DNA of 64,000 nt from an uncultured Pseudomonadales bacterium (GTDB taxonomy: Bacteria; Patescibacteriota; Microgenomatia; UBA1400; PJMF01), in assembly GCA_964457085.1 (NCBI GenBank), contig CAYWDM010000005.1:12065-76064 (forward strand). The letters are read 5' to 3'. Of the stretch, positions 25,092-64,000 are shown one piece after another. The notes beneath the pieces are model-generated. The model was not told the origin of the DNA. It saw only the letters and a program-made list of their open reading frames with translations, and did no database searches. Every line of letters starts with the position of its first letter. The stretch's first letter is position 1. The position numbers were made by a program, and so were the translations under genes.

Positions 25092-25094
25092 CCT

Positions 25095-25445: not shown

Positions 25446-25520
25446 TTTTCGCTAGTTTGCTTCGCCAAGAAAGTATTGATATAATAATCTAGTATCACGG
25501 AAATTATTATAAGGATAATC

Positions 25521-25925: not shown

Positions 25926-25949
25926 GCCAGAGATTTATAAAGCAATTAG

Positions 25950-25976
25950 AAAAGACCCCGAAAGGGGTCTTTTTGG
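25950..25976 (+). terminator. rho-independent terminator after pilin paralog 6
   Basis: AAAAGACCCC-gaaa-GGGGTCTTTTT: 7-bp GC-rich stem, 4-nt loop, T5 run. Confidence 0.8.
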
Positions 25977-26044
25977 TTGTTGAGTTTTACTACAACCACA
26001 TAGACACAAAGTGCAATATGCTGAGATATAATCAATTCACAACA

Positions 26045-40229: not shown

Positions 40230-42350
40230 TTATTTATTGGTATCTTGAGGACTTGAATACTGGTCAATGGAATAGTATCCATGCAGCTGAGGTTTTGCGT
40301 CAGCACTTTGGTTTTGTGGTGTCTGCTTTGGGGCATTTGCTTGTGCTTTAGCGATAGCTGCTTGTTTTTGTTGCTCCATTATTTGAGAGTTCTGTTTTAG
40401 CGAATCCATAATCTCTTTACTTGGGACTCGACTTTGAGCTAAAATTCCGGCGTCTTCTTGACTATCAATCTTACGCTGTTGCACGCTTGAATATTGAACA
40501 GCTTTGCCACCTGGATTTTCGAGTTCGGCTTTTTTTAATCTCTCTGCCTCTCGTCTGTTAACAATTTCTTCAGGATTGGTGGTAATCACGTCATGTTCCT
40601 CGTCACTGGCAACCACTCGTAGAGCAACATGGTTTGAACCAGCAAAAAAGATACCCTCTCCAACGTCAGAAGCCATTAATAGTTGTTTCTCTCCATCACT
40701 TAAATAAAAAGTTTCGGCCAATACTGGGACTGAAGAAGATGATTGTTTCATTAAAAATTGAATTGAGGCGTTTGAAACAATTGCTTTGCCATAGTCGTTA
40801 TGCAAAAAATCCTCAACATCTTGAGTAATTGTGGTAATTCCAAGGTAATATTTGCGAGCACGTTTAACCATTGAATGAATAAAAGAGGCACTGTCTTGAT
40901 GCTTCATAAAATACCAGGCCTCATCAACGACTAAAATTCGTCGTCTCAAATCTTTACGCACCTTTGTCCAGATGTAATCAAGTATGATATACATGGCGAT
41001 TGGACGGAGTCCTTCTTCCATTTCTTGAACTGAAAAAACAGTGAATTGGTTGGTGATGTTTAAATTAGAAGCTTGATCAAAAATACCTCTAAATGATCCA
41101 GTAATAAACTTCTCCAATCGAGCTGAAAGGTCATTTGCTTCATCATTCTCCATACCAATTAGGGCTTTATATAAATCTTCCATCAACGGTGGTTTATTTG
41201 ACTGGGTGGCCGGGTCAGGAGTAATTCCTTTAGCTTTATAAGCTGCCACAATCGAGCGATCCAAGATGGCTTCTTGTTGAGAGGTCATCTCGCCAAGCAT
41301 CAGCTTTAATAAGCCATGCAGTGAGATAATTTTTTGACCCAGCTCGTTCTCACCCTCCTCATAGAGATTAGCAAGATCAAAGGGATTAATTCTGGTCTTG
41401 GAGTTAAATGTAAAGTTAATGTATTCTCCCTGTACAGCTTTGGACAAATCCTCATACTCATGCTCTGGATCAAGAACAATGACCTCACAATCAAACATCA
41501 GCTGACGAATCACCTCCAACTTAACTGTGTATGATTTTCCTGCACCAGATTTAGCAAAGATCACCATGTTCGCGTTTTCCATCTTAAATCTATCGAAAAT
41601 CACTAGCGAATCATTATGCTCATTAATTCCGTACACAATGCCGGTTTCCATAGTCAACTCGGATGAAGTGAATGGAAAAGTAGTTGCAAGTGAAGTAGTA
41701 TCCATATTACGCGTAATCATCAGCTTATCTCGTCCCATGGGAAGTGTGGTCTTAAAACCCTCGTCCATCTGCAACGTTGCTTTTTTAGAAACGATCAATA
41801 ATGCTCCGAGCGTGGACTGAACATTTTTTGTAACTCTTTCGAGCTCATCAACACTTGGGGCAATGATAGTAACGTACAAGCCGAATTGATAAAAACGCTC
41901 GGCACCTGCAGCCAGTTGCTCTCGGATTGAACGAGCATCATTTAGCTTAATTTCGGTATTAATGTTACTAATTTTTCCAGAACGAACATCTGACTGAATT
42001 TCTGCCTCCATCTCAGTGATCTTGCGTTTGAGGTTCTCTAGAATTTCACTTGAGTCGGTAGGATAGATAAACATGGCAATGTTTGTCTGATACGGGTAGT
42101 TGATCATTGGCGAAAGCCAGTTTGCTGGAACCGATCGGGGATATCCTGCCACAAAAATAGTTCGAGTATATGTTGAGTTGATCTTTTGAAAAGTAAAATC
42201 AACCTCAATTGCCTCTGGAGCGATAATATCTTGTATAGTTACCAACCCTTGAGAGAACTCTTTAAGTTTTTCATACTCTCGTTGCTCTTTGGATAACTCA
42301 GGAGTAATTGGAGCTGGGGTTTTTGGAAAAAAAGGTAAATTGAATGCCAT
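40230..42350 (-). CDS. virB4: VirB4/TrbE/CagE-family type IV secretion ATPase (Gram-positive TcpF/PrgJ-like form)
   Basis: N-terminal YTRTIFVAGYPRSVPANWL (VirB4 N-domain pattern); Walker A FAKSGAGKSYT; Walker B LVVDEAWYF; stop lies 57 nt upstream of the dnaA start. Confidence 0.8.
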   Translation of the reverse strand: MAFNLPFFPKTPAPITPELSKEQREYEKLKEFSQGLVTIQDIIAPEAIEVDFTFQKINSTYTRTIFVAGYPRSVPANWLSPMINYPYQTNIAMFIYPTDSSEILENLKRKITEMEAEIQSDVRSGKISNINTEIKLNDARSIREQLAAGAERFYQFGLYVTIIAPSVDELERVTKNVQSTLGALLIVSKKATLQMDEGFKTTLPMGRDKLMITRNMDTTSLATTFPFTSSELTMETGIVYGINEHNDSLVIFDRFKMENANMVIFAKSGAGKSYTVKLEVIRQLMFDCEVIVLDPEHEYEDLSKAVQGEYINFTFNSKTRINPFDLANLYEEGENELGQKIISLHGLLKLMLGEMTSQQEAILDRSIVAAYKAKGITPDPATQSNKPPLMEDLYKALIGMENDEANDLSARLEKFITGSFRGIFDQASNLNITNQFTVFSVQEMEEGLRPIAMYIILDYIWTKVRKDLRRRILVVDEAWYFMKHQDSASFIHSMVKRARKYYLGITTITQDVEDFLHNDYGKAIVSNASIQFLMKQSSSSVPVLAETFYLSDGEKQLLMASDVGEGIFFAGSNHVALRVVASDEEHDVITTNPEEIVNRREAERLKKAELENPGGKAVQYSSVQQRKIDSQEDAGILAQSRVPSKEIMDSLKQNSQIMEQQKQAAIAKAQANAPKQTPQNQSADAKPQLHGYYSIDQYSSPQDTNK

Positions 42351-42351
42351 G

Positions 42352-43338
42352 TTATTTAATTTCAGCCACTGGTGGCAGAGTGTATTGTTGAGCTTGATCT
42401 GGAATTGGCTGTTCGACTACCGTAGCTGGGGGAGCACTATTCTCAGCAGTCACTTGAGTTTCTGCAATTTCTACATTTGTGAATGGTGACTGATTGGCTA
42501 AAACTGGGCTCTCTTGAACAATTTCTGAATTAATTAGCTCGGTTGTTGGAGATGAAGACCCCACTGAGTCTGCTGACGTCTCGCTTGTTGGCTGCTCGAC
42601 TACTGGGGCTGTAGTTGACTGAGGGTTTGGGTCGGACAAGCTAGTTTTGAATACGCTTGCTCTAACTAAGGGAGTACTATAGTCGTTTGATTCGACTAAT
42701 TGCTGTCCCTCAGCTGTCTCTGGGTTGTAGTTAGTGTAAAAAATCTGGATTATTTCTTGAGTATTCAGCTGTTTTGCAAACAGACCAATGCGGTTAAATT
42801 GTCCCATCAAATGTGCATTTCTGGGCTCAAGTACTCCAGCAGCTTTCTCAAGAATGACGCTTTTCTCGATGGTTGAAATATCGAAAGCATTTTTTTTGCC
42901 AGCACTAGACATGAATGAAGAAGGGGACATAATGCCCATCTCAATGGGACTGGCGGGAATGATTACATAGAATTTTTTATCCAAGACATTTCGCTCTTGA
43001 ATCAGTTTACTAACAAACTCTTGATATCGACCAATTCTTGCTGCTTTATCTTTGCTACTAGCTTTTTCTTGCTGTTTTTTGAGCAAATCAAGATATTTCG
43101 TAGCGTCTTTAGTTTTTGATTGAATATTAATTTGAATTGGATAGTTCAGTGAATTTAGTAATGCAGCATACGCGTAAATAACTGCGTCCTGTTCCTCTTC
43201 AGCCAACAAACTAAAATTCATTGCATATACTGAAAGAATGGTTGAAACAGAGCCATCTTTCATAATCACCATATTATTAGTGATGTCGTAGATGTCTAGA
43301 AATTCTTGAGTGGTGGAGCTGATGACACGGCCTGACAT
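42352..43338 (-). CDS. T4SS-associated hypothetical protein, translationally coupled to virB4
   Basis: Stop TAA is separated by 1 nt from the virB4 ATG; N-terminus (VIMKDGSVSTILSV...FSLLAEEEQDAVIYAYAALLNSL) weakly resembles the VirB4 N-terminal domain; Ser/Thr/Pro-rich C-terminus. Confidence 0.35.
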   Translation of the reverse strand: MSGRVISSTTQEFLDIYDITNNMVIMKDGSVSTILSVYAMNFSLLAEEEQDAVIYAYAALLNSLNYPIQINIQSKTKDATKYLDLLKKQQEKASSKDKAARIGRYQEFVSKLIQERNVLDKKFYVIIPASPIEMGIMSPSSFMSSAGKKNAFDISTIEKSVILEKAAGVLEPRNAHLMGQFNRIGLFAKQLNTQEIIQIFYTNYNPETAEGQQLVESNDYSTPLVRASVFKTSLSDPNPQSTTAPVVEQPTSETSADSVGSSSPTTELINSEIVQESPVLANQSPFTNVEIAETQVTAENSAPPATVVEQPIPDQAQQYTLPPVAEIK

Positions 43339-43396
43339 GTAGTATCTCTATCTTACAAGACAGATGACCAAACAAGCAAGGATTATGCCTGGCTGG

Positions 43397-44698
43397 TTAT
43401 GCTTGACTTACGATCTGGATGGGATCGATGATATTTCCAGCTAAAATGAGTTGTTGATCTTGAAATACATATCCCTCTTTGTCAGTTGTCAGCACATATT
43501 CCCCATTATCAAGCGGAGTAGTTATAAAGAACTGGCCAAGAGGGTTTGTTTTAACAGCTCGTGCAACTTCTCCTTTTGTGTTTTTTATCTCCACAATCGC
43601 ATTGGAAAGTATTTTTCCTGCTGGGGTAAACACCATGCCAACTACTTTATTTGGAACTGTAGGCTTGGAGGGAAAAGGCAGTTGATCACTGTGAGTAGTA
43701 GCAATTGTTGGTTGAATAAAATCAGTTGAGGTTGCTGAGTCATTCACCATAAAAACAGTTTGATCCGAGCTACTCACTAATTGTGGCTGTGGAATGTTTT
43801 GTTGTGAATCATCGGTGGCTGGCGGTGCCTCAATAGCAGGAGTTTTCTCTGGTTCTTCAGCAACACGCTCACTTTTTGTGGAAGTTTCTTCTAAAACGGG
43901 AATTTTAATTTGGTTTGCCACGTCTGCTGGGTTTGAAACAATTGTTTTAGCCATTTGTGGTGGAGGAGTAACTGGCGATCTATCAGTGAAATCTGTTGTA
44001 GTCACAATCTCTACTTCTGAAGTAACCTCTTGTTCTTGGCTAGCAACCTCTAGGGTTGATGTAGATTCCGCTGAAAGTTGGGTGGGAACGATGTCTTCAG
44101 GTTGTAAAGTTGCAGTCGTCGTCGTGATGACCTCATGCAGCTCTCTAACTCTAACCTGTAAATTAGGTTTCTGGATTGATTGAATAGCTGAAATGCTGCC
44201 AACAGTGATTGAACCAAACTCACTCAGAATTGATTGTGACCGCTTATGTTGCTCTTGCTCCCAGGGGTCAATTAATTGAGTCTGATGTACGGAAGTAAAA
44301 TATTCTTGAATTCTTTCACGACGAGCTGGCGATAGATCCACATCTTCTGGTGTTAATATGTTTCCAGTCTCAAGCTTATATAGAAAGGGCTCGGGAATTT
44401 TTACTTGTTTTCTCCAGAAAAATTGGGTGGGTCTATATAAAATATTAAAAAAGGTGCTAAACCAATGACCAAGGGGGCGTTCCTCAATGGGTACAAACGC
44501 AATGGCAACTCCCATACCACCGCTGAGCAAGATAAGTGGCCATTTAACGATTGGGATCAGGTTTGTTTTGTAGATAACTACGGCGATTACCACACCAACT
44601 GCAACCTCAGTAAATTGCTGCAGGGTCATGTTTCCAACGATGTGAAACCGATATCCAGTGACGTCTTGTGGAATGGCGTGCTCTCGCATGACATTCAT
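43397..44698 (-). CDS. PrgI/VirB3-like membrane protein with long low-complexity C-terminal extension
   Basis: N-terminal IPQDVTGYRFHIVGNMTLQQFTEVAVGVVIAVVIY followed by a second TM helix (PrgI-family pattern), then about 300 aa of Thr/Ser/Glu/Pro-rich sequence and a C-terminal beta-rich domain. Confidence 0.5.
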   Translation of the reverse strand: MNVMREHAIPQDVTGYRFHIVGNMTLQQFTEVAVGVVIAVVIYKTNLIPIVKWPLILLSGGMGVAIAFVPIEERPLGHWFSTFFNILYRPTQFFWRKQVKIPEPFLYKLETGNILTPEDVDLSPARRERIQEYFTSVHQTQLIDPWEQEQHKRSQSILSEFGSITVGSISAIQSIQKPNLQVRVRELHEVITTTTATLQPEDIVPTQLSAESTSTLEVASQEQEVTSEVEIVTTTDFTDRSPVTPPPQMAKTIVSNPADVANQIKIPVLEETSTKSERVAEEPEKTPAIEAPPATDDSQQNIPQPQLVSSSDQTVFMVNDSATSTDFIQPTIATTHSDQLPFPSKPTVPNKVVGMVFTPAGKILSNAIVEIKNTKGEVARAVKTNPLGQFFITTPLDNGEYVLTTDKEGYVFQDQQLILAGNIIDPIQIVSQA

Positions 44699-44740
44699 TT
44701 TACACTGCTTCAGAGATGAAAATCGAGCCTATAAATCAGC

Positions 44741-45787
44741 TTACTGCTGTGGTCCAGTAACTACAACAGCCGGGGTGATTATCTCAACCGATACTTCTCC
44801 GCCATTGTTGGTAATGACTGTGCCAGAGAATCGATACACAGGGAATGCGGAACCAGTTTCAATATCAGTCCGATATTCTGATGTCGCCTTGGTTAATTTT
44901 CCAGAAGTGATGGTTGCCAAATCAAGCTGGTTGATAGAGTTTTGGTATGCAGCAATTATTGAACCTTGTCCCGCTAAAATATTGGCAACAGCTTGCTGTG
45001 CAGTAATGGTTGCAACCTGTTTAACGATATTTGTTTCAATTATTTGCTGTTGGATTGTAAGTTTAACTATCTCATTGTCAGCATTTAACATCACTCGAAT
45101 TGGAGCATATTCATCATAATTATTGATTACTGGGAGATTGGCAACCTGAGGAGCAAATGGAATCTCAATAATAGTGGCATTTTTCTCAATGGTTTCATCT
45201 AGATCAGTTTTGTCTTTACGTAGGAATTTTAACTGGCCTTTGACTGGTATGTAGGGGCTTTGGGGGAGTAGGGTTTGAATAAATTGTGTTGCTGTATTCA
45301 CCGCCACTTCTGTTTGAATGGTTTTTCCAACAAATCGTTTGCTCTCTGCCATCGCTGCAGATTCACTAGCTTGTTCCTGAATAGAGAGCTGGTTGTTAAA
45401 AATATACTCATTCCGGTTTTTGTCATGAAATAATGAATAATTATCTCGAACCCAAATGTTCTCTGAGCGAGGGTGTTGGACAAGTTGGTATTGCTCAATC
45501 ATTTGTTGAGCAATTTGGCTAACAATGGTTGGATTCAGTTTAATTCCTGCGATCGGCAGTTTTTCTGGTAGATCAAGCTCAGGTCCGTTATAAGTCAGCT
45601 TTTTAAACTCACTTTTCGTTTGGTTAAAGTTGGTCGACATGAACTCCGATGGGCTGAGGCCTGCATTTCGATTTGGGGTTAGAGAATAAAATATTAAGCT
45701 GAGTCCCGTCGAAAGCAACGCGAAAACTAATAGTCCAATTAGTAATTTTTTATTAGTTATTTGAACAGGCAGGTGGTTCTTTGTCAT
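44741..45787 (-). CDS. bitopic membrane protein (VirB8/TcpC-like position), unknown
   Basis: Single N-terminal TM anchor (LLIGLLVFALLSTGLSLIFYSL) plus about 300-aa extracytoplasmic domain; located between the hydrolase and the PrgI-like gene. Confidence 0.3.
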   Translation of the reverse strand: MTKNHLPVQITNKKLLIGLLVFALLSTGLSLIFYSLTPNRNAGLSPSEFMSTNFNQTKSEFKKLTYNGPELDLPEKLPIAGIKLNPTIVSQIAQQMIEQYQLVQHPRSENIWVRDNYSLFHDKNRNEYIFNNQLSIQEQASESAAMAESKRFVGKTIQTEVAVNTATQFIQTLLPQSPYIPVKGQLKFLRKDKTDLDETIEKNATIIEIPFAPQVANLPVINNYDEYAPIRVMLNADNEIVKLTIQQQIIETNIVKQVATITAQQAVANILAGQGSIIAAYQNSINQLDLATITSGKLTKATSEYRTDIETGSAFPVYRFSGTVITNNGGEVSVEIITPAVVVTGPQQ

Positions 45788-48700
45788 AGCAACTGGTTAC
45801 ATTAGCTTTATACTCGTCTGGAACAGTAATTGGTTTGATACATTCATCTGAAGGCGGCACGATAGAGGCTAACTCTGAAGGTGGGCCAGCTCTAAAAAAC
45901 GCACCATTTCTAGCTATTTCATAATGTAGATGAGAGCCACTTGAGTTTCCGGTATTGCCCATCAATCCAATTACTTCACCAGCATCAACTTCTTTACAAC
46001 CATTCACATACGTTTCTGAAAAGTGACAAAACAAGAACGAGCCTTCAGCAGATTGAAGCGTTAAGTGGTTCCCACAGCCCGAATCGATATTTGCCTTACA
46101 AAGTGTGCCTGGAAATGGTGCATAGACTGGTGTTCCTTGAGGGGCGGCAATATCAAAGGCATCCATTCTCCCATGCGAATAACTGCCAAATGGAGCTTGC
46201 GAGACCACTCCTGTTGTCGGCCAACAGCCAGCTGTCATTGAGCAGTCGCCAATACAAAAACTCTTGCCCGTCATTACGTTGTCATTTCCTTCACTAGTGG
46301 CATTTTTCCAATAGAATATTGCTTCAAAAGTGTTGGTAATCTGTGAATGATTATATGAAGAATCGAATTCCTCTTCATAAGTCAAAGTGAGCGAGCTACC
46401 CGTGCACACTGTATTAGCCGGATTGGTTAAGTCGGTGCTGAGAGGTGGAACAAAATCTTCTAGATGTTTTTCTTTATCTGGTTTGGTGGGAACTGGTCTG
46501 CCGAGCTCCTCATATTTTTTCTTGCTATAGCGAGTTTTAATGATGTCGTTGATTTCGGTGATGGTAATGCAAGTACCGACTCCAGTTGGGGTAATGGTGA
46601 TGGTGTAGGTAACCTTTTGTGTGCCAGAGGTGATTTCAGGGCATTTGTCGTCAAGACAGCCAGTATCGATGGTTTTTGTGAGTGAAGCATAATCGGAGAG
46701 CTTTTCATCTGGGTCACTGGCATTAGTTTGATTTGATGGAAAGTCAGCTAATAGAGCAGCAGTAAAGGCACCATTTGTTATCATCACTGAGGCAACCATA
46801 CCGATGGCTGTGCCTGCAACTGCTTGGGTGGCTGTCGCCACCATGCCTGTACTAATTCCTGTTGCTGCGGTAGCGGTGGTAGTCGTAGCCGCAGCCGTTG
46901 AGGTGGCGGTTGCTGCGTGTGTGGGGCTGACCAGTGAGGGGAGAAAAGAATTGCCAGCTATGCCTGGAGTAGCTGCTGACGACATAGTTGTACTAGCAGT
47001 GCCTCCGAATGTGTTGCTCAGTGAGTTGGAGATAGTGCCTGCATGTTGAGTAAGCCAACCAACTCCAGTACCAACGGCCGCACCAACTCCAGTTCCAATT
47101 ACTGCACCGATTGGACCACCAACGATGAATCCAGTCACTCCACCTATTAATGCACCTGTGGCAGTAAAGGCGGGCATGATCACATTGCCCCAAAGTGCGG
47201 CCATGATCAAGCCACCAGCTGCTAATCCAGCACCGACATATTTGATAGTTTTACCAATTGCATCTTGAACGTCTGCTGGCAAAGCACCGACAGCTGCTCC
47301 AAGTCCCGGCATTCCTAGGGCAGCTCCAGCCAGGGCAGCTGAACCTTTTGCAATTGTTTTATCAAAGGCTTTTTCTAGATTCTTGTTTGCTGTTTTGGCA
47401 ACCGTTTTCCCAGCTTGATTGGCTGCACGCTTGGCAGCTCGTTTTCCAGCACCACCTGCACTACGAGCAATGGCTTTCTTTGCAGCATTGCTGGCGTCAC
47501 CAATCTGGCCAGTTGCTTGTACAGCATCAGCTACTACGCCACTTTTTCCTGCCATACGACGTCGCAGTGAGGCAAGTGGACTTAGGCCTGTGTCAACTGA
47601 ATCAAAAGCGGAGCTATATTCATCAAAAGTCAGATGTCGGCCATTGATGCCATTTTGAGCCATCACTATTTGAGCCTCGCCAACGTCACCCAGACAGAAG
47701 TTGGGTGGGATGTGTCCGCTTTGTAGTAGACGCTGAATCTCATCAGCCTCGTACTGGTTTTGATAGTAGTGCTCGTAAATAGCGATCTGTTCTTGTAACT
47801 TGAGTGACCGCCAAATCTCTTGATTATAGATATCTAACTTCAGCTTTTTGATATAAATGTTCTCGGTTGTTGATGCATTCTTTGGATTTTTGGTGTCATC
47901 ACCAACACCGGTACCGGCAGCAATTACATGGTCGCGGGCATATCCACCGTTGCTACCAGCTGAGGAAATAATGTTTTTAACTGGCTGAACATGTTTTTTA
48001 TCAAATTCTTCTTTGGTTGTTTTTTTTAATTCGTCTCTATCAGCTGGATTAACGCCATACTGGCCATATTCAAGTTTTGCTCCACCCGTAATGTATTCGT
48101 GTCGCCGCAGGTGCCAATAAATGGTAAGCACCCCTTTAAATTCTTTGAATTCGTCTGGGGTTAGTGAGGTATTGAAAATTTGATTAAATTGGTCGGTGCT
48201 GAGAATATCTAGGAATGCTGGCTGTTTGCCGTTAGCAGTGAGTGCATCAATTCGTTCGGTAATTCCATGCACCTGCATGCTTAAATTACCGCTATCAAAA
48301 TATGCAAGCGAATCGCATGCTTCGAGCAGAGCCGATTGCGAGTCACCACCTGCAAACGCTAGATCCGGTCTGACTCCAAAAATGGGATTATTGATGACAT
48401 CATTACTAAACTCAGCCATGTCTGAGTCACTGTTTTTAGCACCCTCAAGTTTTTTGTGTAAAGCTAACAGTGCGGTACGGTCACCTTTACTTTTAAGTTC
48501 TCTATACGCAGACTCAACCGCACTACTGAGTGCGGGGGAGAAACGAGGGTCGCTGTATAGGCCAATTCTAAAATCACTGAGAATTTGTAAACGGAGCCCT
48601 GGGTTGGCATATAAATCTCCCAATCCCTCCATTCCAACTCGCTCAATCACTCTCTTTTCAACATTAAATCTAACTACATCGTGCAACTCTTGTCGTAATA

Positions 48701-49535
48701 TCTCGATTGGAATGCCACTTTTATTCGCGAGGCCAACCAAAAAAGCATTAGTAATACGCTCAGACTCTAAACCAAGAGTGCGAATACTCTCAAAATTTTG
48801 TCTGACACTACGTTCCTGAGGTACTGGTTGAGTTTGTTGTTGATATTGTGTTTGTTCCTGGTCGTTGCTGCCCTCCTCACCACCATGGGCTTCTGTCTCA
48901 ACTGGTTGACTACCTCTGGGAACCTCTGAATCGACTGGGGCAATAAATGCTTCTCCGCGATCATCAGCAAGATCTAGTTGTAGTTCTTTGAGTGCTTCAG
49001 GATCTTCATTAAGTTCTCGTGCTACTTCAATTGCAACCTCGATATATGTCTCAAGTCGCTCTCTGAGTTCTCTATAATGTCCTTGACGATATTCAAGTAA
49101 AAACTCTTCTTGGCCGATGGTGATTAACTCTCTGGTTGCTTGAAACCTGATATGGGTAAAAAGGTCATTTTCAGCGGCAATTAATTTTCCAACTTTTGAA
49201 CCAGCTTCAGAATCAACATTGGCTTTTGAAAGTTGTTCGCCATCAAAGATGAGCTTGGCATGAATTTCATCTATGAGCTTGAAGATGTCTCCAATATAGA
49301 GATATCTTTCACGTTCAGTTTCACTACGATGCTGTCTAATTGCTAACGGCCATTGTTTGGGAGCTGCTTGAGGAAAATCTAAAGTTGGTACAAAAATTTG
49401 CTCTGGAGGTTCGTCTGGAGGCAGTATTTCGCTAACAAAAATTGTGGCATTTAAATCCGACAGGAACCGAACAATTTCTGAGTACGTAGCTCGCTCACCC
49501 AATCGCTTGAGGGTATGTGTCCCCGGTTCAACCAT
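45753..49535 (-). CDS. large membrane-anchored protein with C-terminal M23 (LytM) peptidase domain; PrgK/VirB1-like T4SS cell-wall hydrolase candidate
   Basis: M23 motifs HGRMD (HxxxD) and GLMGNTGNSSGSHLHYE (HxH); central Gly/Ala-rich multi-helix glycine-zipper block; Ala/Thr-rich linker; about 700-aa N-terminal cytoplasmic region. Confidence 0.7.
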   Translation of the reverse strand: MVEPGTHTLKRLGERATYSEIVRFLSDLNATIFVSEILPPDEPPEQIFVPTLDFPQAAPKQWPLAIRQHRSETERERYLYIGDIFKLIDEIHAKLIFDGEQLSKANVDSEAGSKVGKLIAAENDLFTHIRFQATRELITIGQEEFLLEYRQGHYRELRERLETYIEVAIEVARELNEDPEALKELQLDLADDRGEAFIAPVDSEVPRGSQPVETEAHGGEEGSNDQEQTQYQQQTQPVPQERSVRQNFESIRTLGLESERITNAFLVGLANKSGIPIEILRQELHDVVRFNVEKRVIERVGMEGLGDLYANPGLRLQILSDFRIGLYSDPRFSPALSSAVESAYRELKSKGDRTALLALHKKLEGAKNSDSDMAEFSNDVINNPIFGVRPDLAFAGGDSQSALLEACDSLAYFDSGNLSMQVHGITERIDALTANGKQPAFLDILSTDQFNQIFNTSLTPDEFKEFKGVLTIYWHLRRHEYITGGAKLEYGQYGVNPADRDELKKTTKEEFDKKHVQPVKNIISSAGSNGGYARDHVIAAGTGVGDDTKNPKNASTTENIYIKKLKLDIYNQEIWRSLKLQEQIAIYEHYYQNQYEADEIQRLLQSGHIPPNFCLGDVGEAQIVMAQNGINGRHLTFDEYSSAFDSVDTGLSPLASLRRRMAGKSGVVADAVQATGQIGDASNAAKKAIARSAGGAGKRAAKRAANQAGKTVAKTANKNLEKAFDKTIAKGSAALAGAALGMPGLGAAVGALPADVQDAIGKTIKYVGAGLAAGGLIMAALWGNVIMPAFTATGALIGGVTGFIVGGPIGAVIGTGVGAAVGTGVGWLTQHAGTISNSLSNTFGGTASTTMSSAATPGIAGNSFLPSLVSPTHAATATSTAAATTTTATAATGISTGMVATATQAVAGTAIGMVASVMITNGAFTAALLADFPSNQTNASDPDEKLSDYASLTKTIDTGCLDDKCPEITSGTQKVTYTITITPTGVGTCITITEINDIIKTRYSKKKYEELGRPVPTKPDKEKHLEDFVPPLSTDLTNPANTVCTGSSLTLTYEEEFDSSYNHSQITNTFEAIFYWKNATSEGNDNVMTGKSFCIGDCSMTAGCWPTTGVVSQAPFGSYSHGRMDAFDIAAPQGTPVYAPFPGTLCKANIDSGCGNHLTLQSAEGSFLFCHFSETYVNGCKEVDAGEVIGLMGNTGNSSGSHLHYEIARNGAFFRAGPPSELASIVPPSDECIKPITVPDEYKANVTSCYDKEPPACSNN

Positions 49536-55277: not shown

Positions 55278-56987
55278 TTAGGCGCCGGTATTCACCTGTG
55301 TTGGTTTGGCTACTTGATGTTTCTCTTTCTTGTCTTCTAAGAAAGCACTAAACATCTTTGCTGGGTCTTCAGCATCAAGTATGCGACCTTCTTTTGTACG
55401 ATCAATAGTTTTACGCATTGATTGACCACGGTCGTAACCAACTTTGCCCCATCTCTTGACACCACCTCGAAGAATTGAGTTGCCATCTCTATCTTGAGAA
55501 TATGGTGACTCACCAGTTTTTGCAGCTCTACCAAGGTCTCTCCAGTTGAATGCTTTGCTGAAGTTCTTTGTTTTGCGTGCGTCGTTGAGATAATTACCAG
55601 CACCATATAGTCCACCTGCAGCTCCGCCAGCCATGCCTCCAAGTACTGGCAATGCAACCTCACCCTGGCCCCAGTTCTTAACCATTGAATTGCCGAGCTG
55701 CTCAAAGACACTACCTTTAACGCCCACAGCTTTTTTCATTTCCACGATCAACTCTGGCATGATCAAAATAATACCGACGCCGACAAGAGTACTAATAGTT
55801 CCTGCTACGCCACGACCAATTAAAAATGGAGGTAAAAATCCACCTGTATCAAGTTGTGTGGCAGCGAACATTCTATAAATAATGATGATTAACAAGGTAG
55901 TTGGGAAGGCCAATAAATTACCGGTGAGGTTTACGATCCACTCTTTAAATGCATTGTGTCCTGGCAATGCACCCATCATTAAAATCAGAGGTGCAAAAGC
56001 AATGCTCAGAACAATAGTGATGTAGGTTTTGAGTAGTTCAAAAAAGAGCTTGAAGACTGCAATCAGTACCGCAACTGCCATGATAACTGCAGCCGTTAGA
56101 CCTGAAAGCCAACCGATAGCATCGCCAATACCATCCATGTTGATTGCGGCTTTAACCACATCATCAACATTGTCCCAAACAGCGGTGGTGGCTTTAACTC
56201 CGGCTCCATTTTGACCAGATAATACACTCCATCCAAGGTCAAAAATACTGTATTGCATGATGTCTTGAGCACTTGAGGCAGAGAACATGCCTACCAGCAG
56301 ATACATTACTAAATACATTAAATCGATCATTAAGCCAGCAATAGCATAGGAAAAGGTAACAAAAATTAGTGAAACCACAATATTTGGAATTGCCTGCTGC
56401 ATGGTAACCGCAGTTTGGCCGATTTTTTGACGGAACATGATCATGAAACCAATGACGAGAAACAAAATCACAAAAATGAGGTAGGCGAGGTTGCGAAATA
56501 ACTTCCAGACTTCGAGCACTGGATCTAGAGCTGCAAAGCCTAAGCCTTGAGCCTGTGCTTGTGGAATGATGTGAGCTGTATTTAATAAATCAGCCACATA
56601 CGTAACTGAGCTAGCTGGTGGAGTGTATAAAGCTACGATACCTTCCGTAAATGAGCCGAGGGCACCGCCTTTGCCATATCGAGCAACCATTCGAGCTCGA
56701 TCTTCTGGAGGTAATGCAGCCAAGCCACTTTTGCTTGGCCCTAACATATGGAGAATTCCTACTGATGCATTGTCAATATATAGTGATCCTGCAAGGTGTC
56801 GAAGATTGGCAAATCCTTTTTCACCTTCGTTCTCGGCGTCTAATTGGGCATCAGAGTTTTTGTTGGCGTCATTTTTGCCAAACCAATCATCCCAAATTGA
56901 AGCATGTGCCGATGTTGGTGCCGCCAAGAATAAAATAGTGGTGAATACTACGATGGTTAAAAAATGGAATAACCTTGTCCGGCGCAT
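55278..56987 (-). CDS. VirB6/TrbL-like polytopic membrane protein
   Basis: Signal peptide, about 130-aa extracytoplasmic domain, then six to seven TM helices and a Gly/Lys/Arg-rich cytoplasmic tail; architecture typical of VirB6/TrbL. Confidence 0.45.
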   Translation of the reverse strand: MRRTRLFHFLTIVVFTTILFLAAPTSAHASIWDDWFGKNDANKNSDAQLDAENEGEKGFANLRHLAGSLYIDNASVGILHMLGPSKSGLAALPPEDRARMVARYGKGGALGSFTEGIVALYTPPASSVTYVADLLNTAHIIPQAQAQGLGFAALDPVLEVWKLFRNLAYLIFVILFLVIGFMIMFRQKIGQTAVTMQQAIPNIVVSLIFVTFSYAIAGLMIDLMYLVMYLLVGMFSASSAQDIMQYSIFDLGWSVLSGQNGAGVKATTAVWDNVDDVVKAAINMDGIGDAIGWLSGLTAAVIMAVAVLIAVFKLFFELLKTYITIVLSIAFAPLILMMGALPGHNAFKEWIVNLTGNLLAFPTTLLIIIIYRMFAATQLDTGGFLPPFLIGRGVAGTISTLVGVGIILIMPELIVEMKKAVGVKGSVFEQLGNSMVKNWGQGEVALPVLGGMAGGAAGGLYGAGNYLNDARKTKNFSKAFNWRDLGRAAKTGESPYSQDRDGNSILRGGVKRWGKVGYDRGQSMRKTIDRTKEGRILDAEDPAKMFSAFLEDKKEKHQVAKPTQVNTGA

Positions 56988-57996: not shown

Positions 57997-60702
57997 CTAT
58001 TTAGCTGCTGCACCAGATTCATTGAGTAGAATGGCAGTGGTAATTGAGCCAGGGCGTTCATACTTAGGATATTTTCTGCCTTCAGCGAGTGACTGACAAA
58101 TTGTTGAATTGGAATAGCAATATGAGGCGGCACTAGTCATCAGTTGCTCGATTCGTTCATCTGTCAGCCCGTACGTGGCTTTATAACTTTCAAGCTTGGC
58201 TCTGAGTTGTTCCATTTCAGTTACATTTGGATCAATATTGCAGCTGAATTCAACAAAATCCAAACAATAAATCAAGTCCATATCGCTATGACGTTCATCA
58301 ATCCAACCGAGTGGATGGGGATGATCTTCTGATTGGAATTGGGCTGGGCATTTACCACCTCCACGCCATCTTGTTGGTCGCTGTTGACCACTGAGATCAC
58401 TACTACAATTCATGTTGCCTGGTCCGTTGAAGCCGCCGATGGCAATGGTGAGGTCCTGGTATGAGATGCTGTCTTTATTAAATCCTCCCGGCCAAAATGA
58501 CTTCAAATGTTCCATGGCTGCTTTAGCATCTTCTTTTAGTGCGCCTCGAAGTGCACCGCCATCAAACACAGATTGACTCGGGTCATTTGCACCCTCAGTC
58601 CAGTGAATACCCGCTACTACTTCACAAGGAATTCCAGTTTCTTTTTCTGCATATTCATATGCTTCGATGTCCGATTCAGTGATTCCAGGTTCAATTTCTG
58701 AATCATAAACACCCTTAGCATATTGGGGAATGCCACTACTTGGTGGTAATCCAGTGATTTTCTTAAAGGCTTCGCCTGTACACTTAGGTGTTTCTTCTTC
58801 ACCGTTTGGTTCAATTTGACACCGACCGAGGAATAGATCTTCGGTACGAGTACATTTAATCTGCAAATGCGGCTGGCGAACTGTTTCTTGTAGCTTGCGG
58901 ATCATCCAGCCTAGTCTTGCCCCCAAAATTCTAAATTGTTCTTGACCTTCTGGTGAAATTGATGCTCCAAATCGTTTGGTTGGATATTTACAGACCCAAA
59001 TACCCAGCCTGTTATATTCACACACTGGTGGGGCAGTGTAGTCAGTATATGTATGTTGCGGTGTGCTTGTTTTAAAGAAAGCTATTGATTCTTTAATTGG
59101 ATAATATTCTGGCACTCCTAATTTATTTTCATAATCAACCATGACGTTTTTTGCTTCCATGGCTTCATACGCACCTGGCTGGAATAAGGCTTTCAGAGTA
59201 CTCTCGACATATTTGAGATCTGTTCCAAGTGGTACGACTAGATGTGCAACCACACGCATTGTTTGACCACTCACATTTCGATAGGCTTCAGATTCTTCAA
59301 CCACTACCTCCCAATCAAAGACAAATCTACGATCCGAAGGTATGACATATGGGAAATAGGGGGCAATTGGCAGCCGATTGTCGCCATTAATTAATCCAGG
59401 TGAACCAATGTCACCGGCATTTTCGAGTGGCATATACGACTCGCCGCAGGCATTGCCAATTCCATTGATAATATCTATGACGGCACGTTGTAGAATTTCT
59501 TCTGGACCCGAGCGACAAGGGTAGAGGGCACAGTATTTGAGGATTGGAAACTCATATCTTTTGGCTTTTATTGCAGCCATGTATCCAGTCCTAACTTCTT
59601 TCGAATCTTTGTCGATAACTTTAATTTGTTCTGGATCCCAATGCAGATCGTTGAGGATTTTGGAAGTATCTTTGAACTTTGACATCAGTGCCGACTTGTT
59701 GGTGGCAAAATCTGGAATCTTGAATGCAACCACAATTGGAGCATCAAGAGTGGCATTAATATCCTCTGGTTGTTTGCGGAACCAGAAAACATCATCAAAA
59801 CCTTCGAGGTCTTCATCACGGTTTTGTCTAATTGAGACAACCAAGAAGCCTGTTCTATAGAGCAAGTTTTGGTCAATACTATAGTGATTAAGTGCATCGC
59901 TCCATCCTGCCAGATCTGCCTTATTGGAAAATCCCATTCGTTCTTTATGGATAGCGGGGTCGTATGCTTTAACAAACTCGCCGCAAAAAGCCGCATTGTC
60001 GTTGAATTTCTCGCGAGCACCATTCATTACCTTCATCAAATCTGTCATGTGGATTCCAGGGCTTTCAGGGATTTTGACATTGATGGCGCAATTAGATCTA
60101 CATCCCAGTTTTTCCATCACTGCCCACATCTCATTCATGGTTTTAACTTTGAGATTGCACTGGACTTCAGGGTTTAGTAGCTGATACACAGCACCTCGAC
60201 TATTGGTTTCGTCTGGTGGCAATTCTGGATTTACCACGCCAACCAATCCTTCCAGTGATGAGATTTTATTGGTGATGCTGGTATCTTCGTCACCTCTCAT
60301 CATGGCAATACGAGAGTTGGTCATATCAACTGTATATGGATCTTTATAGCCTCGCAGATACACCGGCCCTTTGTAGTTTTTAGGATCAAGGTATTTTTGG
60401 ACATCTCCAAACACACTCGGAGCCATGTGCCACTGAGGGGCTGCACAGTGGACCTCATATCCTTGATCTTGCACTAGGTTGGCAACCAACACATCCTGCA
60501 GACTATTTGGGTCATCAAGCGTGAGTTCTGGCCTCATGATCAGAGGCAAAAAGTTGTATTTTTCAGCATCACGAGTTGGCCATGGTTCTGTTTCGGCAAA
60601 AGTTGTGGAAGTGGTTGCCACGCACAACAAAAACAACCAAATGCTGATTTTGAAAATAACACTGGTCAGTCGACTAGTGAGGTGCACCCAATTATTATAC
60701 AA
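57997..60702 (-). CDS. large secreted Cys-rich protein (901 aa), unknown function
   Basis: N-terminal signal peptide (ISIWLFLLCVATTSTTFA); many Cys throughout; last gene of the pilin / pilin-fusion operon. Confidence 0.4.
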   Translation of the reverse strand: MYNNWVHLTSRLTSVIFKISIWLFLLCVATTSTTFAETEPWPTRDAEKYNFLPLIMRPELTLDDPNSLQDVLVANLVQDQGYEVHCAAPQWHMAPSVFGDVQKYLDPKNYKGPVYLRGYKDPYTVDMTNSRIAMMRGDEDTSITNKISSLEGLVGVVNPELPPDETNSRGAVYQLLNPEVQCNLKVKTMNEMWAVMEKLGCRSNCAINVKIPESPGIHMTDLMKVMNGAREKFNDNAAFCGEFVKAYDPAIHKERMGFSNKADLAGWSDALNHYSIDQNLLYRTGFLVVSIRQNRDEDLEGFDDVFWFRKQPEDINATLDAPIVVAFKIPDFATNKSALMSKFKDTSKILNDLHWDPEQIKVIDKDSKEVRTGYMAAIKAKRYEFPILKYCALYPCRSGPEEILQRAVIDIINGIGNACGESYMPLENAGDIGSPGLINGDNRLPIAPYFPYVIPSDRRFVFDWEVVVEESEAYRNVSGQTMRVVAHLVVPLGTDLKYVESTLKALFQPGAYEAMEAKNVMVDYENKLGVPEYYPIKESIAFFKTSTPQHTYTDYTAPPVCEYNRLGIWVCKYPTKRFGASISPEGQEQFRILGARLGWMIRKLQETVRQPHLQIKCTRTEDLFLGRCQIEPNGEEETPKCTGEAFKKITGLPPSSGIPQYAKGVYDSEIEPGITESDIEAYEYAEKETGIPCEVVAGIHWTEGANDPSQSVFDGGALRGALKEDAKAAMEHLKSFWPGGFNKDSISYQDLTIAIGGFNGPGNMNCSSDLSGQQRPTRWRGGGKCPAQFQSEDHPHPLGWIDERHSDMDLIYCLDFVEFSCNIDPNVTEMEQLRAKLESYKATYGLTDERIEQLMTSAASYCYSNSTICQSLAEGRKYPKYERPGSITTAILLNESGAAAK

Positions 60703-60759: not shown

Positions 60760-61110
60760 TTAATACCCTAAGATATCAATTCCAAAGACTTGTTCCACTA
60801 TTTGAGCAATCCAGTACGAAGCGAATAACAATATAAAGCCAACAAGTGCTGCGGTGACACGTTGCTTGCCGGAGTCAACTGATTTTTTTCCTGCCGCACC
60901 AATCATCATTTCGGCTCCACCAGCAACCAACATTACAAAGAGAATCATTCCCGCGATTGGGAATAAGTAGGCAAGTAAGCGATTTATGATGCCCTCTGGA
61001 GTAGAAAGTTCGACTGTAGCAGTCGAATTAGCAAGTTTGAGTGGATTGAGTTCGTCCAATGTTTGTTTGGTAACTTTTTCAAATCCAGAAAGACTAGCGA
61101 GTAGTGACAT
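60760..61110 (-). CDS. T4SS pilin-like protein, paralog 8
   Basis: MIGAAGKKSVDSGKQRVTAALVGFILLFASYWIAQIV matches the pilin family motif; preferred start MSLLASL (61110) abuts the upstream gene stop. Confidence 0.55.
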   Translation of the reverse strand: MSLLASLSGFEKVTKQTLDELNPLKLANSTATVELSTPEGIINRLLAYLFPIAGMILFVMLVAGGAEMMIGAAGKKSVDSGKQRVTAALVGFILLFASYWIAQIVEQVFGIDILGY

Positions 61111-61111
61111 A

Positions 61112-62302
61112 TTAAGTATCTCCAAATCCAGGAATTCTAAAAATGCTGACACCAATAAATTGCAACATAGTTATAGACATAATGATGAATATGAGTCCAA
61201 TGACAGCTGAAGTAATCATTTCTCGACCTTCATCAGTTTTCTTGGCGTCTCCTTGTGAAGTGCTAATGGTAAAGCTGGCTGCCAAGATCATTAATAGTGC
61301 CACGCCACCGGCAACGCCCATACCTACTCGAATCACCACCACGACGATACTCTGAGGATCATTCTCAATACAGCCTACAGCTGTCCAGATACCCAGGGGA
61401 ATTTCTGGTGCGGGTGGTATCCCAGATCCATTTACATTTTGCCCAGCAACACAGCGTGCACATTTACCATATGCCTCTGAATCTTCTGGAATTTGTGCAC
61501 AGATGTCAAAAGTGGTGTCTGATGTGGGGGTAGTTCGAGCTGCGTCGTCACAAGCCTGGATTAAATCAAATTCTTTGGTGCAGAGTATGTCACCACTGCC
61601 AAGAAATTCGCCGTCACTGACTTCGATTGTTAATGTGTCGCCGACTCGAGTTTCTACTGGTGTGAAGGTGATGTCTGGAATCACACCGTTCACAGCATCT
61701 TCGTTATATTGAAACGCATCTTGGCTGTTTTTGACGTGAATTTTTTGGTTGGCTAAGCCACCATTGATGAAAATATTTGAAACGTGGATAGTCAGTTTAC
61801 CACTTTCAAAATCAATGCAGTAGGTATCGCTGAAGCCTCCTTGATCCACAGAAATATTACAGCTATCACTAGATTCAATTTGAAATTGACCAACCTCGCA
61901 CCAATCTCCTGATGCTGTATCTTGAATTTTAATGTCGTATGAGCCAGAAATGTTGGTGCTGGGGGGTGCTGCTGAAAATGTACCAGTGCGTTCTCCAGAT
62001 ACATTTCCAATGAAAATCGGGTTGCCTTGGTTACCTAGTACGTTGTATCGCTGTAGTGCAATTTTATAATTTTTCGTCGTCACGAACCCATCTAGCTTAA
62101 AGGTAAATGAGCCTCCACCCTGGATAGAAGTGGGTGGAGCGGCTCCAAAAAAGTTAATACCCCAATTGTCTTGACAGGATTGGGCTGCTGCTGCAGATGC
62201 CTGCTGAGCAAATAGTGACAAAAATCCAACGCCGCCTAACACAATTGCTAACAGCACGTTGCCAAATTTAGTCATCTGTCTTTTTAAGACTATTGATTGC
62301 AC
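61112..62302 (-). CDS. secreted protein with C-terminal pilin-like module (candidate minor pilin / pilus adhesin)
   Basis: Signal peptide; about 300-aa Cys-containing extracellular domain; C-terminus VGMGVAGGVALLMILAASFTISTSQGDAKKTDEGREMITSAVIGLIFIIMS matches the pilin hairpin motif. Confidence 0.55.
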   Translation of the reverse strand: MQSIVLKRQMTKFGNVLLAIVLGGVGFLSLFAQQASAAAAQSCQDNWGINFFGAAPPTSIQGGGSFTFKLDGFVTTKNYKIALQRYNVLGNQGNPIFIGNVSGERTGTFSAAPPSTNISGSYDIKIQDTASGDWCEVGQFQIESSDSCNISVDQGGFSDTYCIDFESGKLTIHVSNIFINGGLANQKIHVKNSQDAFQYNEDAVNGVIPDITFTPVETRVGDTLTIEVSDGEFLGSGDILCTKEFDLIQACDDAARTTPTSDTTFDICAQIPEDSEAYGKCARCVAGQNVNGSGIPPAPEIPLGIWTAVGCIENDPQSIVVVVIRVGMGVAGGVALLMILAASFTISTSQGDAKKTDEGREMITSAVIGLIFIIMSITMLQFIGVSIFRIPGFGDT

Positions 62303-62356
62303 AGGCGTATTGTACTAAATTTTATCTGATGTGGTAAGAATTCGTTTTTAAACGAA

Positions 62357-62388
62357 ATCGTCCGTCCAGGTTTCCCGGGACGGACGAA
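62357..62388 (-). terminator. probable rho-independent terminator after the 62401..62820 gene
   Basis: CGTCCGTCC-aggtttccc-GGACGGACG 9-bp GC-rich stem just downstream of the minus-strand stop; moderately U-rich tail on the minus strand. Confidence 0.5.
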
Positions 62389-62982: not shown

Positions 62983-64000
62983 ATGAGAATGTCTCGTTTT
63001 GTCATCAGGTGGTTGATAGCTTGTTTGGTGCTGGTTGCATTTGGTTTTTGGGGCATACTCACTGACTTTCAGGTTTTTGCTGTTGATCCAGTTGATGATC
63101 TGCAATCACAGATTAATGAGTTGGAAAAACTAAAGAAAATGAGCACCGATGCCACCAAGCCACTGGAGAAAGAGCTGGCGGGTTTGGAGCAGAAAATCAG
63201 AAATGCTCAAAATGGCATCATCGCTGCTAAGACACAAGTTGAGCAAGTAAGTGTTGATATTAAAAAACGAGAAGAAGATTTGGCGATACAGTATGTGATG
63301 TTTTCCAGTCGGATTGCTGCCTCATATCGTCGTTCACGAACCTATTCACCATTTTTGTTGTTTTTAAATACTGGCAGTGCAGCACAACTAACCAAAGATT
63401 TGGCATACCAGACTTCAGTACAAGCTCAAGACAACAAATTAATTCGTGGTATTGGTGAAGAGATTGGTAGTCTGCAAAAAGACAAGCAAAAACTTGAGCA
63501 AGATCAGATTCGTTTAGCTAAATTGCAGTCACAACTAGATGGTCAGGCTCAGTTTTTCCGCAAGGAAATTGAAGGTGCTAAAGCCTACCAAAAGGATCTT
63601 TCAGGTAAGATTGCCGATCTATCAGCCAAACAGCAGTCGATTATTAATGCTCGTTCAGGTACAGCAATTACTTCAGTGGGCGAGGTGCCACTTGCTGATG
63701 ATTTTAACGCTTCTATCGGTTTTAAATCACAAGCACCTGGCAATAGTTTTGCACTGTTTAGTTTTGGTGGCTACACTCATCGTAACGGTATGAGTCAGTA
63801 CGGTGCTAATGCTCGTGCCAAGGATGGCCAGTCTGTTGAAGATATTCTGAAAGCATATTACCCCAATGCGTCGATCAAAAAAGATTTTTCGGCAATGGGT
63901 AGTATTAACGTTCAAGGCACCGGCACAATTTCATTCGAGGATCAATATCTGCAGGGTATCTATGAAATGCCAGCTAGCTGGCATATTAATGCACTCAAGG
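62983..64000 (+). CDS. coiled-coil protein with SpoIID/LytB-like domain; 3'-truncated by window edge
   Basis: Not in the ORF track because there is no stop in the window. Manual frame-1 translation is open from ATG 62983 to nt 64000: signal/TM (WLIACLVLVAFGFWGIL), long coiled coil, then GGYTHRNGMSQYGANARAKDGQSVEDILKAYYPNASI, which matches the SpoIID/LytB G-x-G-H-G-x-GMSQYGA region. Confidence 0.6.
   Translation, partial: MRMSRFVIRWLIACLVLVAFGFWGILTDFQVFAVDPVDDLQSQINELEKLKKMSTDATKPLEKELAGLEQKIRNAQNGIIAAKTQVEQVSVDIKKREEDLAIQYVMFSSRIAASYRRSRTYSPFLLFLNTGSAAQLTKDLAYQTSVQAQDNKLIRGIGEEIGSLQKDKQKLEQDQIRLAKLQSQLDGQAQFFRKEIEGAKAYQKDLSGKIADLSAKQQSIINARSGTAITSVGEVPLADDFNASIGFKSQAPGNSFALFSFGGYTHRNGMSQYGANARAKDGQSVEDILKAYYPNASIKKDFSAMGSINVQGTGTISFEDQYLQGIYEMPASWHINALK

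Follow-up and report, generated by a model that had tools for sequence, protein, structure and literature searches.

A VirB2-type pilin module fused to a variable immunoglobulin-like ectodomain, and its partner pilin, as candidate minor pilins of a Microgenomatia type IV secretion system

Background

In the current model of type IV secretion systems (T4SSs), a pilus is built up from its base on a pentamer of VirB6 and is primed by VirB5, which reaches the tip (T4SS review). VirB2 homologs are described in the literature as small, two-helix proteins, and in the solved conjugative pili both of their termini point outward, with the loop turned towards the lumen (published structures). T4SS loci of Patescibacteria are located near the origin, carry arrays of VirB2-like pilins and usually lack a relaxase (PMC12102498); T4SS and pilin genes were found to be essential for epibiotic growth in one genetically tractable Patescibacterium (Wang et al. 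2023, PMC10633639). Monoderm and Patescibacteria systems lack VirB5 according to the literature, and in the monoderm plasmid pCF10 no VirB5-like protein was found. PrgB-like adhesins were not detected in a survey of Patescibacteria, and most Patescibacteria genomes with VirB2 homologs have no VirB1 homolog (PMC12102498). Here we analyse two adjacent genes, one encoding a pilin module fused to a large ectodomain (the fusion) and the other a small pilin (the partner), in a 64,000-nucleotide stretch of contig CAYWDM010000005.1 (assembly GCA_964457085.1, positions 12,065 to 76,064 of the forward strand; hereafter the window), which was deposited as an uncultured Pseudomonadales bacterium and is placed by GTDB in the Microgenomatia of the Patescibacteria.

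Hundreds of lineages have kept the pair, beside a SpoIID gene and near either a pilin array or a block containing a VirB6-like candidate. The fusion extends the known architecture of VirB2-type pilins, so far described only as small hairpins, by an ectodomain. A literature search that included the Patescibacteria pilin-array papers and a recent T4SS review found no mention of VirB2-like pilins fused to an ectodomain, nor of the partner class, nor of a linkage to SpoIID.

Results and discussion

Coordinates and C-terminal pilin hairpin of the fusion

The fusion gene was found in the list of open reading frames (ORFs) at positions 61112-62275 of the window on the minus strand, encoding 387 amino acids (aa) from an ATG at 62275, with the stop codon at 61112-61114. 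An alternative GTG upstream, at 62302, gives an ORF of 396 aa (61112-62302, minus strand), and this was the form in which the initial annotation had reported a protein with a signal peptide. Such an ORF is present; the ATG start is favoured, among other things by a -10-like site, TACAAT, that lies directly upstream of the GTG, although the scan for promoters yielded as many sites in shuffled sequence. A database protein 100% identical to the fusion (P0001) also begins at the ATG at 62275 (387 aa), and residues are numbered here according to the 387-aa form throughout.

Residues 305-387 (61115-61363, minus strand) make up a VirB2-type (PF18895) pilin hairpin, composed of a first transmembrane helix (TM1), the turn STSQGDAKKTDEGRE, a second helix (TM2) and a conserved IPGFG tail. 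In the AlphaFold 2 (AF2) model, which was run with a 39-sequence alignment and reached a mean predicted local distance difference test (pLDDT) score of 83.3, the two helices extend over residues 307-339 and 344-379 with the loop STSQGDAKK between them; a single-sequence model (pLDDT 45.5) was unusable. A hidden Markov model (HMM) of the eight stand-alone pilins of the window scored the fusion at 55.1 bits, against 13.1 bits for the best of 2000 composition-preserving shuffles of its C-terminus. In a scan of the 267 segments that make up the six-frame translation of the window, the fusion was the only hit outside the array, with 53.9 bits (E 2.9e-16); the best segment after the pilins obtained 6.5 bits, although polytopic membrane proteins were in the set. 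The C-terminal 80 aa or so align without gaps to the pilins of the tandem array in the window across TM1, the turn (S.GD.KK) and TM2 (ITSAVIG), and are homologous to the VirB2/TrbC-type T4SS_pilin (PF18895) arrays of Patescibacteria, with which the S.GD.K turn and ITSAVIG motifs are held in common (PMC12102498; PMC10633639). These comparisons identify the C-terminus as a genuine pilin module and not a generic transmembrane hairpin. The match to the pilin hairpin claimed in the initial annotation is therefore upheld, and the contrary outcome it had named, a generic hairpin without the conserved turn motif, is contradicted by the aligned turn.

With the Pfam model PF18895, the fusion sequence alone scored 17 bits (E 0.0064) and did not reach the gathering threshold of 26.6. 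Among 84 diverse members of its family, 78 matched PF18895 at E<=1e-3, with a best value of 1.8e-9. We accordingly assign the fusion to PF18895 at the level of the family, its single sequence being sub-threshold. Neither the fusion nor the partner matched the Pfam family TrbC/VirB2 (PF04956), to which three array pilins showed sub-threshold similarity (E 0.004-0.03), and a PDB sequence search with the profile of the C-terminal module returned nothing meaningful.

Hairpin residues 308-374 also matched NCBIfam NF045849 (Mbov_0395 family pilin-like conjugal transfer protein, of Mycoplasma integrative and conjugative elements, ICEs) weakly, at 18.8 bits where the cut-off is 40. There is a hint here that the Patescibacteria pilins may be related to monoderm ICE pilin-like proteins, and not borrowed from diderm systems.

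With a signal peptide and two transmembrane helices, the N-terminal domain and the C-terminal tail are predicted to lie outside and the turn inside, as in VirB2-type pilins. Since the N-terminus of VirB2 is on the outside of the pilus, an N-terminal passenger would be geometrically compatible with display.

Signal peptide and ectodomain

The N-terminus of the fusion, MTKFGNVLLAIVLGGVGFLSLFAQQASA followed by AAAQSC, resembles a signal peptide, and AF2 placed a helix at residues 3-22. Read from the sequence, the signal peptide comprises residues 1-29 (62189-62275, minus strand); the likely cleavage site, after AQQASA, was placed by eye and would leave a mature protein of about 358 aa.

The initial annotation had also called for a large secreted domain containing cysteines, and an ectodomain of about 275 aa was found, with 10 cysteines, each of which is kept in at least 37 of 39 homologs. 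Conservation of all ten cysteines of the mature protein fits an extracytoplasmic, disulfide-bonded ectodomain. AF2 predicted two immunoglobulin-like (Ig-like) beta-sandwich domains in it, with strands mostly at pLDDT above 90: the first, which is the variable "head", at residues 33-134 (61874-62179, minus strand), and the second at residues 138-239 (61559-61864, minus strand). They are followed by a Cys-rich "neck" at residues 240-304 (61364-61558, minus strand), delimited from family alignments and marked by the motif F.LC.QI ... KC..C ... GIWTAVGCI with four invariant cysteines, C259, C272, C275 and C302. In the AF2 model the neck (about 244-304) consists of short helices and a beta-hairpin at moderate pLDDT (55-84).

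Comparison of the fusion model with the PDB by Foldseek matched only tandem Ig domains, namely IgL1-2 of PECAM-1 (E 2e-7), Fab (antigen-binding fragment) light chains and D1D2 of nectin-3; the template-modelling scores were low because the relative orientation of the domains differs. No enzyme fold and no lectin fold was found in this search. A cytoplasmic enzyme fold, which had been put forward as an outcome that would count against an extracellular role, thus gives way to a modelled tandem Ig-like sandwich. The suggested check for adhesin or lectin folds, carried out with Foldseek and Pfam, gave a divided answer: an extracellular Ig-like fold was obtained, and a recognised adhesin or lectin domain was not. 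On the model, the fold of the ectodomain is Ig-like but generic. A search with the N-terminal domain alone recovered only the fusion itself and one close homolog.

The partner pilin

The partner gene is located at 60760-61110 (minus strand) and encodes 116 aa from an ATG at 61110; its product scored 32.3 bits with PF18895, which exceeds the threshold of 26.6. The ATG lies one nucleotide past the stop codon of the fusion, the junction being TAA-t-ATG with GGAG 8 nt upstream, and the partner is probably translationally coupled to, or co-translated with, the fusion gene. The 131-aa form given in the initial annotation uses an upstream TTG and overlaps the fusion ORF. That annotation had described the partner as an eighth stand-alone paralog. 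It is indeed a pilin, but not a mere further copy: an HMM of the partner class scored the window partner at 155 bits, the array pilins at 21-75 bits and the fusion hairpin at 34 bits, by which measure the partner is a dedicated, orthologously conserved class of its own. A match of the partner to RseC_MucC (24.5 bits) was set aside as a hydrophobic-hairpin artefact.

The neighbourhood of the fusion was analysed in 84 loci from public assemblies by ORF calling and a phmmer pipeline. Of the 80 loci that could be tested, 72 have a pilin gene directly downstream of the fusion and in the same orientation, with spacing mostly between a 13-nt overlap and a 7-nt gap. The partner reaches at least 250 aa in 28 of 73 loci, the longest having 543 aa, and each of the six longest, which were inspected, carries a signal peptide and a Cys-rich N-terminal extension. 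Examples of partners with large extensions are L035:10279-11910, L077:10276-11778 and L070:1867-3366. The partners of the window and of its close relative L001 have instead a hydrophilic N-tail of about 45 aa, which would have to cross the membrane.

A GC-rich stem-loop (GTCCGTCC...GGACGGAC) and then a T-rich stretch (62360-62385, minus strand) were noted right after the gene for a 139-aa membrane protein, followed by a promoter-like TTACCA-17-TACAAT (62309-62337, minus strand) ahead of the fusion gene. The stem-loop and the promoter-like site suggest that the fusion and the partner, perhaps together with the next gene, which encodes a 901-aa protein, would form a unit with its own promoter. 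In a promoter and terminator scan such sites were no more numerous than in shuffled sequence, and operon structure was inferred from gene spacing alone.

A conserved anchor with variable heads

A word-indexed search with the fusion returned 104 homologs of 227-520 aa, the majority of which share just the C-terminal third of the query; lengths in the family span about 200 to 520 aa. The shared module begins with the neck motif given above and continues with GG(V)ALLMIL ... STSQGD.KK ... SAVIGL.FI ... LQFIGV ... IPGFG, so that the family can be recognised from sequence by the motifs GIWTAVGCI, STSQGD.KK and IPGFG. When 1.84 billion representatives were scanned exhaustively with the module by HMMER, at least 499 clusters (50% identity) were found at E<=1e-30. 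The module forms the extreme C-terminus in 149 of the 150 best HMMER matches. The exception, P0158 (312 aa), is a single ORF with three tandem pilin modules, one of fusion type and then two of array type; it may be a genuine polyprotein of pilins or have arisen through an error of gene calling or assembly.

Mean pairwise identity among 39 homologs of the query's N-domain group climbs along the protein, from 0.20 in the first and 0.21 in the second Ig-like domain to 0.44 in the neck and 0.64 in the hairpin. The N-terminal parts of 171 members fell into 46 clusters unrelated by BLAST. Named database entries of the family are annotated as "hypothetical protein", and the closest homologs of the fusion come from records titled Woesebacteria, Pacebacteria or Microgenomatus.

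Several genomes carry more than one fusion gene. The genes are in tandem in L038, L068 and L082, the whole pair is duplicated in L076, and two copies occur on one contig in L044/L073; in some genomes the multiple fusion-type genes differ in their N-domains and are arranged in tandem or as solo copies without partner and SpoIID. One locus, L015 (CP011212.1, 31208-51483), belongs to a complete 853-kb genome titled "candidate division TM6" and has the full arrangement of SpoIID, fusion, partner and a 943-aa protein that is typical of Microgenomatia; either the title is mislabelled or the module is present outside Patescibacteria. Many further homolog records are titled "uncultured Pseudomonadales", evidently a mislabel.

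Genomic neighbourhood of the pair

A SpoIID/LytB-like gene (62983-64000, plus strand) is divergent from the pair and runs off the end of the window; its product has an N-terminal transmembrane segment and a coiled coil, and matched TIGR02669 (SpoIID_LytB) with an E value of 7e-14, under the curated cut-off of that model. A divergent SpoIID gene was found at most 1.3 kb upstream of the fusion in 58 of 70 loci, which makes the gene for this SpoIID-type cell-wall enzyme the tightest conserved neighbour of the pair.

Downstream of the pair two arrangements were observed. In the first, seen in the window and present in 36 loci, homologs of the 901-aa protein, of a 275-aa protein on the opposite strand and of a 569-aa protein follow. 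The 901-aa protein is Cys-rich and secreted and is encoded at 57997-60702 (minus strand), next after the partner with a 57-nt gap, exactly the secreted ORF that had been noted there initially; homologs occur downstream of the pair in 31 loci. The 569-aa polytopic membrane protein (55278-56987, minus strand), tentatively a VirB6/TrbL-like platform, is syntenic with the pair in 27 loci. In the second arrangement, present in 38 loci, the pair is followed by UppS, then NUDIX, an extracytoplasmic function (ECF) sigma factor and a pilin array, and 18 of these 38 loci have at least two array pilins within 10 kb. Both arrangements are present in 5 loci.

Array pilins were found a few kb from the pair in other genomes, for example in L003, and the fusion shares genomes and neighbourhoods with PF18895 pilins and their arrays. 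In the window the pair is located 19 kb from virB4, in one T4SS-rich block, and 4 kb from the weakly identified VirB6-like candidate. Flanks of 8 kb or more on each side were available for 34 loci, and in 26 of these, array pilins or the block of the 569- and 901-aa proteins lie within 10 kb. The co-occurrence check proposed in the initial annotation therefore came out positive, in that the fusion occurs with the pilin family and with T4SS-associated genes in other genomes. The remaining 8 of the 34 loci have no T4SS-associated gene within 10 kb, and 6 of those 8 keep the UppS-side arrangement.

Comparison with described systems

The fusion has the two hydrophobic helices, the short charged loop and the N-terminal export signal of VirB2-like pilins, as judged from AF2 and sequence. 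It differs from them in its folded ectodomain of about 275 aa, its Cys neck and its IPGFG tail, and it is far from the small mature size of such pilins, which ranges from a few tens to about 100 aa. It also differs from the array pilins in that a partner of a dedicated class, which stands outside the array, forms a fixed pair with it. The monoderm two-helix pilin-like proteins PrgF (ter Beek et al. 2025 preprint) and Mbov_0395 (NF045849) are, unlike the fusion, small and without an ectodomain.

The role proposed below for the fusion would be like that of the tip protein VirB5/TraC/TrwJ, that is, a minor component which primes on VirB6, reaches the tip and contacts the target. This is a likeness of role and not of descent: VirB5 is a soluble helical-bundle protein, unlike an Ig-like tandem on a pilin hairpin, and VirB5-like Pfam families were unmatched in the window protein and in the 84 family members.

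The minor pilins of type IV pili and type II secretion systems (GspK, CofB/TcpB and the complexes presenting PilY1) combine a conserved anchor with a large variable passenger, act as a low-abundance initiating or capping set, and fall into ancient paralog classes. By analogy the fusion would follow the same design logic, but with an unrelated fold and machinery. The class-III signal (G before F/M, then E) and the N-terminal alpha1 anchor of those pilins are absent from the fusion, in which the anchor is C-terminal and the passenger N-terminal, and no match of the fusion to the pilin/N_methyl Pfam families was found. The LPXTG motif of sortase-pilus tip adhesins is also absent, the C-terminus reading ...FRIPGFGDT after two transmembrane helices.

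The Big (bacterial Ig-like) proteins RSP and RSP2 of IncHI plasmids bind conjugative pili (PMC8730810). Like PrgB, the surface adhesin of pCF10, they are surface proteins with Ig-like domains which aid T4SS-mediated cell contact. RSP, RSP2 and PrgB are separate, secreted or wall-anchored proteins that bind the pilus or the cell non-covalently, whereas the Ig-like domains of the fusion are covalently part of a pilin-module protein. Among the 84 diverse members no Big_1-Big_9, PrgB or adhesin Pfam was found; PF18895 alone was matched, apart from one spurious MatE.

Proposed role and alternative explanations

We tentatively favour the reading that the fusion is a specialised VirB2-type (T4SS_pilin) pilin of a monoderm-type T4SS, acting as a minor pilin which initiates or caps the structure formed by array pilins and exposes its variable head. 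A Sec-type signal peptide would export the N-terminus, residues from about 33 to 239 would fold into two disulfide-containing Ig-like sandwiches, and the neck and hairpin would follow. The fusion and the partner may then join a filament or stalk of array pilins as minor pilins. Most plausibly they would be the initiating complex on the VirB6-like platform, and because VirB2 pili grow from the base, an initiating complex would finish at the distal tip. The Ig-like head would then be exposed to the host or partner cell, as would the ectodomain that the partner has in many genomes, and the pair could serve as a functional VirB5 analogue made from the pilin fold. For the structure to pass, the peptidoglycan may be opened by SpoIID, a possible wall-opening, VirB1-like enzyme for the Patescibacteria T4SS. 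With its rapidly diversifying ectodomains the pair offers a concrete candidate for the contact or tip component still missing from that system.

A more specific proposal, which we regard as doubtful, is that the two proteins form a VirB5-independent initiation or tip complex of VirB2 fold, priming the T4SS pilus on a VirB6-like platform, with swappable heads that set host specificity. If the tip-complex proposal is correct, T4SS pili would gain their first described minor-pilin/adhesin system, and host recognition by uncultivated Microgenomatia would become predictable from sequence. The tip adhesin suggested in the initial annotation is consistent with the topology, the extracellular Ig-like fold and the pattern of conserved anchor and variable head; the adhesin domain itself was not found.

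Several observations weigh against a minor-pilin role. No pilus has yet been observed in Patescibacteria, so that the existence of the pilus is itself a hypothesis (T4SS review). The pair is linked more tightly to SpoIID than to core T4SS genes, and a VirB4 homolog was found within 10 kb in none of the 84 loci. The 569-aa protein is weakly identified as a VirB6: TrbL Pfam families were matched by just 4 of 60 homologs, with a best E value of 4.4e-6, from which it appears that this family, a probable VirB6 analogue, largely escapes standard profiles. No Pfam domain, whether adhesin, lectin or other, was found in the N-domains of the 84 family members, and a generic Ig-like fold could be a mere spacer. 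The window partner (116 aa) has no recognisable signal peptide, nor has that of L001. Lastly, the expectation that the hairpin would be more conserved than the major pilins was dropped, as the mean best identity between genomes was 0.59 for the fusion module, 0.55 for orthologous array pilins and 0.63 for the partner; conservation of the hairpin is about that of the array pilins, and nothing marks it as specially machine-bound.

The alternative that survives best, though we consider it unlikely, is a membrane-resident envelope scaffold, in which the hairpins are a two-helix anchor or a fixed part of the T4SS membrane complex, never polymerising and never leaving the membrane. The Ig-like domains would then be a rigid stalk spanning the wall and S-layer, for example positioning SpoIID or lining a passage through the wall. 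Tandem Ig-like domains are common wall-spanning spacers, and the generic fold match, the strength of the SpoIID synteny and the lack of an adhesin domain in the N-domains all agree with such a scaffold. So does the persistence of the fusion module, the partner and the array as separate conserved classes, as expected for fixed positions in a complex, and a head of about 25 kDa on every subunit could not fit a dense pilus lattice. On the other hand, the turnover of N-domains (46 clusters among 171 members) and the tandem paralogs are more typical of exposed surfaces that recognise a partner, and the full pilin geometry with its turn motif has been kept, ungapped against the array pilins.

It is more improbable still that the pair acts outside the T4SS, working with SpoIID in cell-wall remodelling or division, the hairpin being an ancient duplicate recruited as an anchor. 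The divergent SpoIID gene, the absence of VirB4 from the 10-kb surroundings and the 8 long-flank loci devoid of T4SS-associated genes would be explained in this way. The linkage to SpoIID is, however, compatible with a T4SS role, because monoderm T4SSs need wall hydrolases. Furthermore, the array or the 569/901-aa block is nearby in 26 of the 34 long-flank loci, and the UppS-side arrangement kept by 6 of the 8 exceptions leads elsewhere to the ECF sigma gene and the array. In the window itself the pair ends a block that starts at virB4, and no gene of recognised housekeeping function was found in that block.

We think it very unlikely that the fusion is a giant pro-pilin, whose N-terminal 300 aa are a leader or chaperone-like pro-region cleaved to release an ordinary small pilin. 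VirB2/TraA pilins do have unusually long leaders that are processed, as in F TraA and RP4 TrbC. Here, in contrast, the N-terminal part is a confidently predicted, disulfide-bearing two-domain fold behind a signal peptide of its own, a small-residue cleavage motif was not evident by inspection between GIWTAVGCI and TM1, and the strong conservation of the neck beside the hairpin would be odd for a discarded segment. Finally, the hairpin could be generic and hydrophobic and resemble a pilin by chance, or two genes could have been fused by mistake in the assembly or the gene calling. Only the sub-threshold PF18895 score of the single sequence could lend weight to these explanations, and they are excluded by the shuffle control, by the window-wide scan, in which the other membrane proteins all stayed at or below 6.5 bits, and by the recurrence of the architecture, which at least 499 independent clusters share and which was also seen at 84 loci of many different assemblies.

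Other features of the window

Members of the 901-aa family share a conserved body of some 600 aa and differ in a variable, swappable C-terminal domain. The homolog in L023 (L023:6161-9709) ends in a lysozyme-like SLT_3 domain (PF18896, E 4e-11). A lysozyme-like label for the window protein was dropped, as SLT_3 lies outside the shared region (residues 32-639). The C-terminal 260 aa of the window protein, with the motif AGIHWTEG, had no Pfam match, and a PDB sequence search with the 901-aa protein gave nothing meaningful. The 569-aa family is large and unannotated, with 872 homologs at E<=1e-5 and 37-65% identity among 60 aligned; a PDB search with its profile also gave nothing meaningful.

A core T4SS block of monoderm type is located at 40230-49535 (minus strand) beside dnaA, as found from Pfam matches and ORFs. 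It contains VirB4 (40230-42350, minus strand), a PrgI/VirB3-like gene (43397-44698, minus strand), a gene (45753-49535, minus strand) whose 1260-aa product contains an M23 peptidase domain, and genes for proteins of 328 and 348 aa. The genes dnaA (38.5-40.2 kb) and dnaN (37.2-38.4 kb) adjoin the T4SS, so that the window, which also has a pilin array, agrees with the near-origin position and VirB2-like arrays reported for Patescibacteria.

The tandem array of seven PF18895 pilin paralogs was located by Pfam search at 23417-26476 (plus strand). The seven are about 25% identical to one another and 50-75% identical to their counterparts elsewhere (mean best 0.55; 20 loci, including L003, L006 and L011). 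Array pilins have been proposed to be antigenic-variation copies (PMC12102498). From these identities the array appears to be a set of distinct pilin classes that was fixed long ago, and not a group of fast-evolving copies of that kind.

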